A stretch of DNA of 5,668 nucleotides, from the IMG/VR virus record IMGVR_UViG_2917855067_000002. One strand, 5' to 3'. Each line of letters begins with the position of its first letter. Position 1 is the stretch's first letter. The position numbers and the translations under genes are program-made. Under the pieces are notes generated by a model, which made no database searches, had not been told where the DNA came from, and saw nothing but the letters and a program-made list of their open reading frames with translations. Of the stretch, positions 1 through 5,668 are shown one piece after another. This DNA is from a virus (Duplodnaviria; Heunggongvirae; Uroviricota; Caudoviricetes).

Positions 1-273
1 TTACTGTGGAGATATCAGATAAAGCAAAGCCTGAGTCGCCGGGGAAATTGCTGGGATAACAGCCCAATGGAACGGTTCTTCAGAAGCCTGAAAACAGAGT
101 GGGTACCGGATAATGGCTACGCGAATTTAAGCGAAGCCAGCACGGCAATAACGAATTACATCACAGGATATTACAGCCAGCTCAGACCTCATCAATATAA
201 TGGTGGTTTGACGCCGAATGAATCAGAACGATTGTTCTGGAAAAACTCTAAAGCTGTGGCCAGTTTTTGTTGA
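1..273 (+). CDS. IS3-family transposase OrfB (integrase/DDE domain), C-terminal fragment; the 5' end lies outside the window
   Basis: The frame is open from base 1 and translates [36 protein letters not shown]...[11 protein letters not shown]..., which matches the conserved C-terminal region of IS911/IS3-group OrfB as I recall it. The stop is TGA at 271..273. Confidence 0.85.
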
Positions 274-281
274 CCACTACA
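1..281 (+). mobile_element. 3' end of an IS3-family (IS911-like) insertion sequence, truncated by the window start; the right terminal inverted repeat occupies about 245..281 and ends in ...CCACTACA
   Basis: The reverse complement of 245..281 is TGTAGTGGTCAACAAAAACTGGCCACAGCTTTAGAGT, which begins with the same TGTAGTGG...TTGGCCAC / ...CTGGCCAC pattern as the left end at 5368 and resembles my recollection of the IS911 terminal repeats. The transposase ORF stops at 271..273, inside the repeat. Confidence 0.8.
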
Positions 282-424
282 ACGTTGACCTGGCCGCCAG
301 CGGCGTTGCCTACAAAGAGCGGATGAATATACCGGTAATTGCAGAACAGGTAGCCCGTGAGCAACCGGAGAACTTGCACACCTATTTCATGGAACGGCTA
401 CGATACTGGCCGGCGTTGAATTAA
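282..424 (+). pseudogene. Possible 3' remnant of a gene interrupted by the IS insertion (open frame ending ...[27 protein letters not shown]); product unknown
   Basis: The frame of the 218..424 ORF runs through the IS end at 281 and stays open for 47 codons of non-IS DNA before a TAA at 422..424. The first 21 codons of that ORF lie inside the IS, so its ATG is not a genuine start. The sequence is about 50% GC and not low-complexity. The support is weak. Confidence 0.2.
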
Positions 425-483
425 TCCACATGATGCGCAAGGGGCAATATCAGCATCCTCAGGGTGATGGATTGTCACCCACA

Positions 484-530
484 GAACAATTTTATCTGCT
501 GACTTTCCACCGTTAACGCGACACAACCTT
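484..530. repeat. Left arm of an inverted repeat flanking the AT-rich cassette
   Basis: 497..530 (TGCTGACTTTCCACCGTTAACGCGACACAACCTT) is the exact reverse complement of 1485..1518. A further 13 bp (484..496) matches 1553..1564 with a 1-nt indel. The arm contains the 8-bp palindrome CGTTAACG. Confidence 0.85.
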
Positions 531-593
531 AATATGCCACAAAGGTTTTTGTTAACGAGCTGCATCTTTTTCTTTTCTGGGTGATGATTGTTT

Positions 594-599
594 TATAAT
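594..599 (+). promoter_or_regulatory. Candidate sigma70 -10 hexamer (TATAAT) in the AT-rich leader of the cassette; no good -35
   Basis: A perfect TATAAT lies at 594..599, about 90 bp upstream of the uORF Shine-Dalgarno. The -35 region (about 570..577, TTCTTTTC) is poor and the upstream sequence is AT-rich. Confidence 0.3.
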
Positions 600-696
600 A
601 AACAAATAACAACATTTATTCTTGTAAAAGTAATAATATCTCTTTGGTGATCGAATTTATTGATCGCATTTCAATTAAACAAATAAGGAGTTTTTT

Positions 697-762
697 ATGC
701 CCAAAATTACCGGTGTTCTAGTGAGCCACCATGTGTTCGATATAAAAAAAAGACATGGCTAA
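697..762 (+). CDS. 21-codon upstream ORF (MPKITGVLVSHHVFDIKKRHG) with a strong Shine-Dalgarno; its stop overlaps the start of the 214-aa ORF, suggesting a leader peptide or translational coupling
   Basis: TAAGGAG at 684..690 is followed by a 6-nt spacer and ATG at 697. The TAA stop at 760..762 overlaps codons 2-3 of the downstream ORF (ATGGCTAA), and that downstream ATG at 755 has no Shine-Dalgarno of its own. Confidence 0.4.
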   Translation: MPKITGVLVSHHVFDIKKRHG

Positions 763-3905: not shown

Positions 3906-3920
3906 TTAGTATAAAAAAGC
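3906..3920. other. attL core (15-bp lambda common core, reverse complement GCTTTTTTATACTAA), marking the phage-chromosome junction; bacterial B-arm DNA follows from 3921
   Basis: TTAGTATAAAAAAGC at 3906..3920 is the reverse complement of the lambda att core. The phage-side flank (CCAAC, reverse complement GTTGG) is lambda P', and the other flank (AGGCTTCA, reverse complement TGAAGCCT) matches E. coli attB. Confidence 0.9.
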
Positions 3921-3967
3921 AGGCTTCAACGGATTCATTTTTTCCATTTTAAAGCCCGGAGCAACCT

Positions 3968-5251
3968 GTGAACACATTTTCAGTTTCCCGTCTGGCGCTG
4001 GCACTGGCTTTTGGCGTGACGCTGACCGCCTGTAGCTCAACACCGCCCGATCAACGTCCTTCTGATCAAACCGCGCCTGGTACCTCTTCTCGCCCGATTC
4101 TGTCGGCAAAAGAAGCGCAGAATTTCGATGCTCAACACTATTTTGCATCCCTGACACCAGGTGCTGCAGCGTGGAATCCTTCCCCGATTACCCTGCCTGC
4201 GCAACCTGACTTTGTTGTCGGCCCGGCGGGTACCCAAGGTGTAACGCATACCACGATTCAGGCAGCGGTGGATGCGGCAATTATCAAGCGTACCAACAAG
4301 CGCCAGTATATTGCCGTGATGCCTGGTGAGTATGAAGGCACGGTCTATGTCCCTGCCGCTCCGGGTGGAATTACTCTGTACGGTACAGGTGAAAAACCGA
4401 TTGATGTGAAGATTGGGCTTTCCCTTGATGGGAGCATGAGCCCTGCCGACTGGCGTCACGACGTCAACCCGCGCGGCAAATATATGCCAGGTAAACCAGC
4501 GTGGTACATGTACGATAGCTGCCAGAGCAAACGCAGCGACAGTATTGGCGTGCTCTGTTCTGCGGTTTTCTGGTCACAAAACAATGGCCTGCAACTGCAA
4601 AACCTGACCATCGAAAACACGCTGGGCGATAGCGTAGATGCGGGTAACCATCCGGCGGTGGCACTGCGTACTGATGGCGACAAAGTGCAGATCAATAACG
4701 TCAACATTCTCGGTCGTCAGAACACCTTCTTTGTCACCAACAGTGGTGTGCAAAACCGTCTGGAAACCAATCGTCAACCGCGTACTCTGGTGACGAATAG
4801 CTATATTGAAGGGGATGTGGATATCGTTTCTGGTCGCGGCGCGGTGGTGTTCGATAATACCGAATTCCGCGTGGTGAACTCCCGTACTCAGCAAGAAGCG
4901 TATGTGTTTGCACCGGCTACGCTGTCTAACATCTATTACGGTTTCCTCGCCGTAAACAGCCGTTTCAATGCTTCCGGTGATGGCGTGGCGCAACTGGGCC
5001 GCTCGCTGGATGTTGATGCCAATACCAACGGTCAGGTGGTGATCCGTGATAGCGCCATCAACGAAGGTTTTAACACGGCTAAACCGTGGGCCGATGCGGT
5101 GATTTCCAATCGTCCATTTGCGGGTAATACCGGCAGCGTTGACGATAGCGACGAAGTACAGCGCAATCTGAATGACACTAACTACAACCGCATGTGGGAA
5201 TACAATAACCGCGGCGTGGGTAGCAAAGTGGTTGCAGAAGCGAAGAAGTAA
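3968..5251 (+). CDS. ybhC: Outer-membrane lipoprotein YbhC, pectin-methylesterase family (reported acyl-CoA thioesterase), 427 aa; GTG start
   Basis: The translation begins MNTFSVSRLALALAFGVTLTAC, a signal peptide with the lipobox LTAC. The length and sequence match E. coli YbhC as I recall it, and the gene lies on the gal side of lambda attB. GGAG at 3958..3961 sits six nucleotides upstream of the GTG at 3968. Confidence 0.92.
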   Translation: MNTFSVSRLALALAFGVTLTACSSTPPDQRPSDQTAPGTSSRPILSAKEAQNFDAQHYFASLTPGAAAWNPSPITLPAQPDFVVGPAGTQGVTHTTIQAAVDAAIIKRTNKRQYIAVMPGEYEGTVYVPAAPGGITLYGTGEKPIDVKIGLSLDGSMSPADWRHDVNPRGKYMPGKPAWYMYDSCQSKRSDSIGVLCSAVFWSQNNGLQLQNLTIENTLGDSVDAGNHPAVALRTDGDKVQINNVNILGRQNTFFVTNSGVQNRLETNRQPRTLVTNSYIEGDVDIVSGRGAVVFDNTEFRVVNSRTQQEAYVFAPATLSNIYYGFLAVNSRFNASGDGVAQLGRSLDVDANTNGQVVIRDSAINEGFNTAKPWADAVISNRPFAGNTGSVDDSDEVQRNLNDTNYNRMWEYNNRGVGSKVVAEAKK

Positions 5252-5267
5252 GAGCTATTAACTATTT

Positions 5268-5302
5268 GCCGGATGCGGTGTAAACGCCTTATCCGGCCTA
5301 CG
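5268..5302. repeat. REP (repetitive extragenic palindromic) unit
   Basis: GCCGGATGCGGTGTAAACGCCTTATCCGGCCTACG matches the E. coli REP/PU consensus. Confidence 0.75.
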
Positions 5303-5316
5303 GTTCGATGCGATTT

Positions 5317-5352
5317 GTAGGTCGGATAAGATGCGCAAGCATCGCATCCGAC
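5317..5352. repeat. Second REP/PU unit in inverted orientation (BIME-like pair with the first)
   Basis: GTAGGTCGGATAAGATGCGCAAGCATCGCATCCGAC is palindromic and resembles an inverted REP variant. A third, partial unit (GCCGGATG, 5360..5367) is cut off by the IS end. Confidence 0.65.
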
Positions 5353-5367
5353 AATAAGTGCCGGATG

Positions 5368-5668
5368 TGTAGTGGCATAGTAAATTTGGCCACCTGAATA
5401 GAGGTGATATCATCACCTCATAGTCAAAACAGGTGACATTATGACCGGACGTAACAGACGCAATTTTAGCCCCGAGTTTCGCCTCGAGGCTGCCCAGCTT
5501 GTACTCGATCAGCATTACACCGTTGCCGCCGCTGCCACTGCGATGAATGTCGGCAAATCCACGATGGATAAATGGGTTCGACAACTGAAAGAAGAGCGAG
5601 CGGGAAAATCACCCCATAGCTTCACCCATGACACCTGAGCAGATTGAAATACGTGAGTTGAAGAAAAG
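5368..5668 (+). mobile_element. 5' end of a second IS3-family (IS911-like) copy in the same orientation as the first; left terminal inverted repeat at about 5368..5404; continues beyond the window
   Basis: TGTAGTGGCATAGTAAATTTGGCCACCTGAATAGAGG at 5368..5404 pairs as an imperfect inverted repeat with the right end at 245..281. It is followed by an OrfA-like gene. Confidence 0.85.
5441..5668 (+). pseudogene. IS3-family transposase OrfA (helix-turn-helix / leucine-zipper protein), IS911-like, with an apparent frameshift at about 5611..5616; the 3' end lies outside the window
   Basis: The 5441 frame gives [58 protein letters not shown] and then runs into a stop at 5636..5638. The conserved continuation [17 protein letters not shown] is in a different frame. 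The change of frame falls in a CCCC run. Confidence 0.8.

Follow-up and report, generated by a model that had tools for sequence, protein, structure and literature searches.

The window analysed here, by which we mean the whole 5668-bp stretch of DNA, opens inside the 3' end of an IS3-family insertion sequence (1..281, + strand) and closes inside another 5' end (5368..5668, + strand), as the first-pass annotation had described. Between these ends lie prophage genes, a phage attachment site and a chromosomal gene. Immediately to the right of the first IS end is a truncated prophage homologue of a DNA polymerase III theta-like (HolE/Hot-like) gene (282..424, ORF 284-424, + strand), whose match to PF06440 covers profile positions 17-58 of 70; the gene is without about 16 N-terminal codons and without its C-terminus. 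It is followed by a cassette (497..1518) flanked by inverted repeats, which comprise 34-bp perfect repeats at 497-530 and 1485-1518 and imperfect arms of ~100-130 nt. The cassette contains an Invasin_D4-like ORF (697/755-1399, PF21764) and a terminator hairpin found by repeat analysis (1418-1456), and its orientation is reversed in another Escherichia lineage (L019-L026). The possibility that the cassette arms derive from an IS6-family transposase 3' end was dropped, as no NCBIfam profile matched.

Further to the right are ORF104, a prophage accessory gene (1736-2050, + strand), and a homologue of phage 434 ORF114 (2115-2459, + strand), both recognised by sequence comparison. These precede a lambda/434-type excisionase gene, xis (2566-2784, + strand, PF07825), and a lambda-type integrase gene, int (2762-3832, + strand, PF09003 and PF00589), in a stretch 97.8% identical to phage 434. 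The 15-bp lambda att core, read directly as GCTTTTTTATACTAA (3906..3920, - strand), marks attL, the prophage/chromosome junction: phage homology stops at 3920, and chromosomal homology to a relative (L015) runs from 3902. The chromosomal gene ybhC (3968..5251, + strand), encoding a pectinesterase-like lipoprotein / acyl-CoA thioesterase, was identified by profile and chromosome comparison, and a REP/BIME unit 3' of it (5268..5367) is seen as an empty site in strain E1V33 and in E. coli KE40.

With int, xis, the attP arm and, next to ybhC, the 15-bp core, this region is a lambda-type prophage end at attB-lambda. It closely resembles the integration module of phage 434 and lambda at attB-lambda (ybhC/ybhB), with int, xis, ORF114 and the attP arm 97.8% identical to 434 and the core adjoining ybhC, but differs from both phages in its upstream theta-like pseudogene, Invasin_D4-like cassette and ORF104. 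The gene ybhC also lies next to attB-lambda in E. coli and E1V33. Profile and phage comparison agree with the segment content originally read from the letters alone, namely the cassette, small ORFs, int/xis, attL and ybhC.

Identity of the terminal insertion sequence

Alignment of both window ends shows one IS species in direct orientation. With a complete 1256-bp copy from E. coli H8 (NZ_CP010172.1 38685-39940) as the reference, window 1-281 corresponds to IS positions 976-1256 with 1 mismatch (99.6% identity, E = 9e-143), and window 5368-5668 to IS positions 1-300, from which it differs by a single mismatch and one added C (99.3% identity, E = 1e-151). The left fragment matches rve_3/rve_2 and encodes the OrfB C-terminus (1-273, + strand; NF033516 IS3 transposase, profile positions 296-368 of 369), and it finishes with the right inverted repeat (~246-281, + strand), which ends ...CCACTACA. 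The right fragment opens with the left inverted repeat, a terminal repeat at 5368-~5403 (+ strand), and includes the start of orfA at 5441 (+ strand), with an HTH_Tnp_1 match in the fragment. Window ends and full reference copy alike have TG...CA termini (TGTAGTGG...CCACTACA) and inverted repeats that agree at 8/8 terminal bases and in a GGCCAC core, which bears out the earlier view that the two ends share the + strand and have matching terminal repeats. The IS boundaries at 281 and 5368 are exact, as E. coli chromosome homology ceases at 5367 and sister-prophage homology opens at the IS tip.

The full reference copy has two ORFs and an A6G site at position 334, for which the PGAP annotation is "programmed frameshift". 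The window does not reach the frameshift region, which is known from the reference copy. Target duplications of 3 bp (GAA, AAT) accompany reference IS copies at two of four independent loci. The TG...CA ends with imperfect inverted repeats, the helix-turn-helix of orfA, the DDE/rve domain of orfB and the -1 programmed frameshift are those of an IS3-family element.

The element had initially been termed IS911-like, a description that stands at the level of the subgroup but not for IS911 itself. Like IS911, it is ~1.25 kb long with TG...CA ends, an orfA helix-turn-helix, an orfB rve/DDE domain, an A6G -1 frameshift site and a 3-bp target duplication, and its right-end repeat is identical to that of IS911 at 40/45 positions. 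It differs in length (1256 bp vs ~1250 bp) and in its tips (TGTAGTGG/CCACTACA vs TGAAGTGG/CCACTTCA in IS911), and identity to IS911 is ~72% at the nucleotide level, with 71% amino acid identity for OrfA and 72% for OrfB. In ISfinder, copies are considered the same IS at about 95% nucleotide identity or more, and near-identity at this level was the threshold applied here. On this measure the 1256-bp element is an IS distinct from IS911, belonging with it only at the subgroup level.

PGAP and other sources label the element only with the generic term "IS3 family transposase"; the name ISYen1, suggested by Yersinia literature, came with no sequence to support it. The same 1256-bp IS is present in the chromosomes of E. 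coli H8 and WP7-S17, in Citrobacter, Salmonella and Klebsiella, and on the pYV plasmids of Yersinia enterocolitica. These copies show 98-99.6% nucleotide identity to both window ends and are identical in length and ends, whereas the window holds two terminal pieces only, with one substitution each and one extra C.

Contig ends and assembly

The window constitutes the entire contig PDIE01000021.1, one of 49 in the draft assembly (PDIE01) of strain E3356 from Escherichia cryptic clade II, which was produced from Ion Torrent single-end reads of 35-400 nt (SRX3260348) using the assemblers MIRA and SPAdes with manual gap work (PMC6639607). The sequenced IS portion amounts to 281 nt at the left end and 301 nt at the right, in two pieces without mutual overlap. 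These overhangs agree with the read length, indicating that assembly stopped approximately one read length inside the repeat. What had been described as two copies are two repeat junctions at which assembly halted, and the window does not hold two sequenced elements. Such a repeat-bounded contig is an ordinary outcome when repeats limit an assembly; it does not represent a new mobile unit.

A second, separately produced assembly breaks at the same two junctions: contig RHJQ01000047.1 shares 99.98% identity with window 259-5363 and closes with 137 nt that correspond to window 5267-5403 at 97.8%, which places both of its termini within the same IS ends. In look-ups for further E3356 contigs, an exact search with the truncated 65-aa OrfA gave no match and the 90-aa OrfB fragment returned the window alone. 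Homopolymer errors specific to the sequencing platform produce spurious frameshifts in two genes, orfA and the Invasin_D4-like ORF, where the suspect site is an A-run at ~745-752. In the C-run at ~5609-5612 the window has C4 where five other IS copies have C3, resulting in an apparent orfA frameshift, and the extra C is probably a sequencing error.

A contig of this form could also arise if both ends were the same single IS copy, with the 5.1-kb segment and the IS forming a circle or tandem amplification that was left linear. The end pieces are complementary (IS positions 976-1256 and 1-300) and in the same orientation, as would be produced by a circle cut in the IS, and the window is a whole contig. 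However, the ends do not overlap, and a single-copy 1256-bp element would not halt assembly, which means that the IS must be repeated with differing flanks. In addition, every relative has ybhC and attL in unbroken continuity with the chromosome, the second assembly breaks at the same places, and a non-replicating excision circle would not be expected to assemble at normal coverage from a clonal culture. We consider the single-copy explanation improbable, and infer that E3356 probably carries two complete copies of the IS. The two junctions most likely mark separate, directly oriented copies of the 1256-bp element, which would flank the integrase-proximal end of a lambda/434-type prophage at attB-lambda, plus ybhC.

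Origins of the two junctions

At the right junction, IS copy 2 is inserted after ...GCCGGATG in the REP element, 116 nt past ybhC. In the species representative E1V33 (L018), which matches window 237-5367 at 98.1% identity, the REP at this site is empty. We read copy 2 as a lineage-specific insertion into the REP element, and an ordinary insertion of this kind would predict ...TTGACCACTACA/ATGCGACCCACATTCAC toward ybhJ, with the 3-bp ATG duplicated (here and below a slash marks the joint).

The left junction has a different background. Sister prophages without the 1256-bp IS, E1V33 among them, carry a 45-bp relic of the IS911 right end at the copy 1 nucleotide; this relic is identical to IS911 at 44/45 positions and to the 1256-bp IS at 40/45, and its left edge lies within an 8-nt microhomology with an ead/Ea22-like gene. 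At ybhC, the lambda/434-type prophage end of E1V33 is the same but lacks both IS copies. The junction ...CA/ACGTTGACC is common to relic-type and IS-type relatives, with the theta-like gene cut at the identical nucleotide and both the IS911 relic and the 1256-bp IS ending exactly at this point. Because sister prophages hold the IS911 relic at the exact nucleotide, truncation of the theta-like gene predates the 1256-bp IS, and the initial suggestion that the first copy had truncated the prophage is not borne out.

A complete 1256-bp IS is found at the identical nucleotide in another Escherichia lineage, in which the adjoining module is 97.5-99.2% identical while the chromosome is only ~90.6% identical. 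The same left junction is present in 18 contigs, one of them a finished chromosome, and no complete genome of E. coli has either junction arrangement. The full IS copies at the theta junction in L019-L027 have differing left flanks and no target duplication.

An assembly chimera, in which IS sequence became falsely linked to the IS911 relic and the REP element, might be suspected in an Ion Torrent draft with manual gap work and demonstrable homopolymer errors, but is hardly credible here. The longest exact matches between the relic and the IS end are 15, 12 and 10 nt, IS-type bases extend to 3 nt from the tip, the left junction recurs in the 18 contigs that include a finished chromosome, and both junctions recur in the separate assembly. 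Homologous recombination inside the 45-bp relic was rejected as the source of the junction on the same ground of IS-type bases reaching to 3 nt from the tip.

The arrangement at the left junction is reminiscent of the IR-targeted transposition described for IS911 and IS30, in which an IS inserts so that one of its ends directly abuts the tip of a resident end, head-to-tail (PMC9333248, PMC7986276). This process is known from plasmid assays in which elements target their own ends, whereas here the resident end is that of IS911, another IS. A full IS911 most likely once occupied the theta-gene nucleotide, its last 45 bp remaining in sister prophages, and the present position of the 1256-bp IS against that nucleotide would be best accounted for by transposase-mediated targeting of the resident IS end. 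A simple IR-targeted insertion with a retained relic would predict ...GGTTGACCACTTCA-ACG/TGTAGTGGCATAG, with ACG duplicated. A resident IS911 right end followed by a short spacer and an incoming left end had 0 matches in 185,579 GTDB species-representative genomes, and the full copies in L019-L027 likewise have no such IS911-end/spacer/IS-left-end structure on their left side. We tentatively interpret the left junction, at slightly less than even odds, as a natural record of cross-element end-targeted transposition, in which the IS911 end served as a surrogate target and the block comprising the IS end, truncated theta-like gene and cassette spread from one Escherichia species to another through recombination of lambdoid prophages.

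It is also conceivable that the copy 1 block was inherited, or imported by lambdoid prophage recombination, from an ancestral event seen in the other Escherichia lineage, leaving copy 2 as the only new transposition, for example by local transposition from copy 1. L024, a member of that lineage, shares 99.2% identity with window 1-530, the module is common to lineages with chromosomes ~9% apart and is found beside different integrases and att sites, and the aligned theta-like flanks of the two lineages differ by just two SNPs. However, the window has the clade II allele at both SNPs (+14 and ~+210 from the junction), so that import would need a crossover no more than 13 nt from the IS tip, or later SNPs, and one end-targeted event would still be needed to bring two different ISs to one nucleotide. 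Import of the block is possible, but on balance we lean against it.

Composite-transposon interpretation and significance

Two direct copies of one IS around a few kb of passenger DNA are a feature of composite transposons, and the first-pass annotation had proposed that the copies define a composite-transposon-like unit. That the segment is a working composite transposon, or a translocatable unit able to carry int/xis/attL and ybhC with it, would be in keeping with the direct copies of one IS at both ends and with the ability of this IS family to form tandem dimers and circles (PMC9333248). Unlike in composite transposons, no movement of the unit is seen, and the passenger is a chromosomal gene still at its native site beside a prophage end, with ybhC adjacent to attB-lambda as in E. 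coli and E1V33. The IS-flanked segment was found at no second location among complete E. coli genomes (5,426 E. coli genomes), in exact-protein look-ups of public assemblies or in IMG/VR, and these searches also returned no deletion product in which a single IS replaces the segment. Each junction, moreover, has a separate history. The searches lend the proposed unit no support, and we judge a functional transposon to be very improbable. That the direct repeats could recombine homologously is trivially true and does not count as a finding.

In conclusion, our preferred reading, to which we assign a probability of roughly 0.72, is that the window is a repeat-bounded contig whose ends most likely represent two separate direct copies of the 1256-bp IS, with copy 2 new in the REP element, copy 1 on an older junction where IR-targeting may have placed it, and the pair acting as a passive recombination substrate. 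Direct IS copies around a few kb of DNA are common, and in this case they mostly explain a break in a draft assembly; where a window ends in complementary IS parts, a repeat-bounded whole contig is the first thing to check. The paired IS ends are an ordinary finding and matter little for biology. Besides the homopolymer artefacts in this sequence, a small point of value lies in the occurrence of two different IS911-group elements at the same nucleotide in related prophages, and, if our interpretation of the left junction is true, this locus would be a candidate natural example of end-targeted transposition, a process so far known from laboratory assays.

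Gene content and boundaries of the segment

Reading of the sequence and its ORFs, together with Pfam and BLAST, bears out the coordinates and gene inventory of the first-pass annotation. The window opens with the C-terminus of a transposase containing the rve domain (1-273) and the right end of an IS (about 246-281, finishing ...CCACTACA at 281). These are followed by part of a DNA polymerase III theta-like gene (284-424; PF06440, profile positions 17-58 of 70), an AT-rich cassette (497-1518) that carries an Invasin_D4-like ORF between perfect 34-bp inverted repeats (497-530, 1485-1518), ORF104 (1736-2050), ORF114 of phage 434 (2115-2459), xis (2566-2784), a lambda-type int 97.8% identical to that of phage 434 (2762-3832), the 15-bp lambda att core (3906-3920), and ybhC (3968-5251). 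One REP/BIME unit lies after ybhC, and from 5368 the left end of an IS, starting TGTAGTGG, includes the orfA helix-turn-helix. Theta homologues, comparable to the Hot gene of phage P1, are carried by lambdoid prophages of clade II; the gene at 284-424 is a pseudogene cut at both ends. ORF104 resembles the "LexA regulated protein" family PRK11675 only weakly, below threshold (E = 0.0066; 16.8 bits, cut-off 62), and its C-terminus is rich in cysteine (CGKCG...CPCNGDSQC).

An exact-protein look-up identified the window as the complete record PDIE01000021.1 (5668 bp) of assembly GCA_004745295.1. PDIE is Escherichia cryptic clade II strain E3356, for which single-end Ion Torrent reads (35-400 nt, 40x) were assembled by means of MIRA and SPAdes (PMC6639607). 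The window overhangs into the 1256-bp repeat by 281 and 301 nt, which is the reach of reads anchored in unique DNA; thus the "two copies" are two junctions where the assembly stopped, and the sequenced parts of the IS are these 281 and 301 nt only. The assembly would have continued through a single-copy element; its break implies that the IS is repeated with different flanks in E3356, and there is little room for the alternative in which both ends are one and the same IS in a circle or tandem.

Both IS junctions are real, as a second assembly agrees, the left junction recurs, and a chimeric join is implausible. RHJQ01000047.1 (5329 bp), separately produced and likewise a complete contig, shares 99.98% identity with window 259-5363, matches window 5267-5403 with its final 137 nt at 97.8%, and begins 23 nt and finishes 36 nt within these IS ends. 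Apart from one homopolymer base, its difference from the window is that it has three BIME units rather than one. This array after ybhC (window 5268-5367; three near-identical units of ~93 bp at 5000-5292 of RHJQ01000047.1) either truly differs in copy number or was collapsed by the Ion Torrent assembly. The left junction, traced via a 68-aa ORF spanning it, is present in 18 contigs, including one finished chromosome. Where the IS end agrees exactly with the alternative sequence at that site, the longest stretches are 10-15 nt.

Two homopolymer runs affect ORFs in the window. The A-run at 745-752 in the Invasin_D4-like ORF (start 697) is A8 in all five Ion Torrent assemblies of the project and in a Logan assembly of one of their runs, and A7 in all three RHJ* assemblies of another project, where a 233-aa ORF is kept intact; A8 breaks up this ORF and only 214 aa are called. 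As this split follows the platform, phase variation is disfavoured, and A8 is best read as a homopolymer sequencing error. The run at about 5609-5612 in orfA is C4 in the window only, against C3 in five other IS copies, and shortens OrfA to 65 aa; it too is probably an Ion Torrent homopolymer error. With both runs read as errors, the apparent orfA frameshift should be given no biological meaning.

Escherichia sp. E1V33 (RHJI01000006.1, GTDB species representative) has the same prophage end at ybhC without either IS, with 98.1% identity to window 237-5367. Its sequence beyond ybhC is ...AAGTGCCGGATG/CGACCCACATTCAC..., uninterrupted (the slash marks the junction here and below); therefore the right-hand copy is an insertion into a REP element. 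This insertion was found in no complete E. coli genome. Several clade II strains (loci L002 and L009-L011; 14754-15460 in L002) have an AT-rich 217-aa gene on the opposite strand between ybhC and ybhJ, in the place of the REP elements of the window and E. coli; its product has no recorded Pfam hit.

The bracketed segment had also been proposed to form a composite-transposon-like unit. Direct repeats of 1.26 kb can recombine, which is general knowledge and not evidence specific to this segment. The segment is at its native chromosomal place. E3356 and the RHJQ assembly are the only ones in which it was found between copies of this IS, and searches of complete E. coli genomes, public assemblies (by exact protein) and IMG/VR gave neither a single-IS deletion product nor a second location with the same IS; the IS pair and segment are hardly credible as a mobile unit. 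The observation of matching IS ends is confirmed, and its interpretation is partly supported; the structure, a draft contig with an IS junction at each end, is ordinary and already known in kind.

Identity of the IS and history of the left junction

Both window ends match a 1256-bp element of E. coli H8 (NZ_CP010172.1, 38685-39940): IS positions 976-1256 correspond to window 1-281 with one substitution, and positions 1-300 to window 5368-5668 with one substitution and one extra C. In the H8 copy, orfA and orfB are present together with an A6G slippery site (position 334), and PGAP annotates a "programmed frameshift"; 3-bp target duplications accompany the reference IS at two of four independent loci. 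Copies 98-99.6% identical occur in Citrobacter, Salmonella, Klebsiella, and Yersinia enterocolitica plasmids, and also in many Enterobacterales. Identity to a genuine IS911 from E. coli VL7S7 is only about 72% (DNA), 71% (OrfA), and 72% (OrfB), and the element is thus an IS3-family relative of IS911. The earlier label "IS911-like" is apt at subgroup level only: both ends are the same IS, but this is not IS911 itself.

In E1V33 the theta-like gene breaks off at the same nucleotide (...CA/ACGTTGACCTGG), as it does in sister clade II prophages from several att sites (L002, L003, L005, L010, and four 10-49 kb IMG/VR proviruses). Just before the cut, these prophages carry a 45-bp sequence (9482-9526 in L003, 9483-9527 in L002, 1014-1058 in the E1V33 locus; equivalent to window 237-281) that matches the IS911 right end at 44/45 positions and the window's IS at 40/45. 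This relic gives the upstream ead/Ea22-like ORF its last 14 codons (...WKNSNSVASFG) and stop. Its left edge falls inside an 8-nt stretch, ACTGGAAA, common to the ead/Ea22-like gene and IS911, a microhomology which indicates that a full IS911 once lay at the theta-like gene and was then mostly deleted. The theta truncation is therefore older than the window's IS, and the proposal that the first copy truncated the prophage is unsupported as stated. Strain E4208 (L004, 9480-9500) lacks the relic and the first part of the theta fragment, and its upstream ORF runs straight into ...GACCTGGCTGCC; ACGTT is common to both fusion endpoints and suggests that the relic-type arrangement underwent a microhomology deletion.

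A junction common to two elements

The complete 1256-bp IS is found at the identical theta nucleotide in another Escherichia lineage, whose chromosomal fli genes are only about 90.6% identical to those of clade II. The module next to the IS shares 97.5-99.2% identity with the window: after the IS come the same theta fragment, cassette, ORF104, and ORF114, with a different integrase, beside fliE. Three left flanks of the full IS were seen in this lineage (L019, L024, and L025, about 8740-8808), namely ...ATAGACAAC/, ...GAACGTACAA/, and ...CACGCGCCGT/, and the target duplication (ACG repeat) is absent from all three. There the IS marks a decayed prophage edge with a rearranged left side, and the variable flanks are the signature of repeated IS-adjacent deletions or exchanges at the left-end side.

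The cassette, roughly 950 bp within imperfect arms of about 100-130 nt around the 34-bp repeats, lies in the opposite orientation in this lineage (L019-L026, about 10280-11333). As it is on the + strand in all clade II loci and on the - strand in all loci of the other lineage, this looks like a fixed inversion rather than active switching; no invertase gene lies near the cassette.

As to how two ISs reached one nucleotide, homologous exchange within the 45-bp relic is ruled out by the IS-type bases of the window, which extend up to 3 nt from the tip, and it is improbable that two random insertions independently hit one phosphodiester bond. Integration beside resident IS ends is known for IS911 and IS30, a donor end being joined in fixed orientation to the flank at the targeted tip, followed by branch processing (PMC7986276, PMC9333248). 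Here, a resident IS911 end would have been targeted by the 1256-bp IS, with one end joined to the flank at the tip. Because this mechanism predicts the observed junction, we infer that IS-end-targeted integration is its most likely origin. The retained junction that such targeting predicts (IS911 end, spacer, new left end) was found neither in representative genomes nor beside the full IS copies of the other lineage. The targeting may have occurred in the E3356 lineage itself or the junction may have been imported with a phage module; two flank SNPs weakly favour a local origin. The one modest curiosity of this locus is a junction common to two IS911-group elements.
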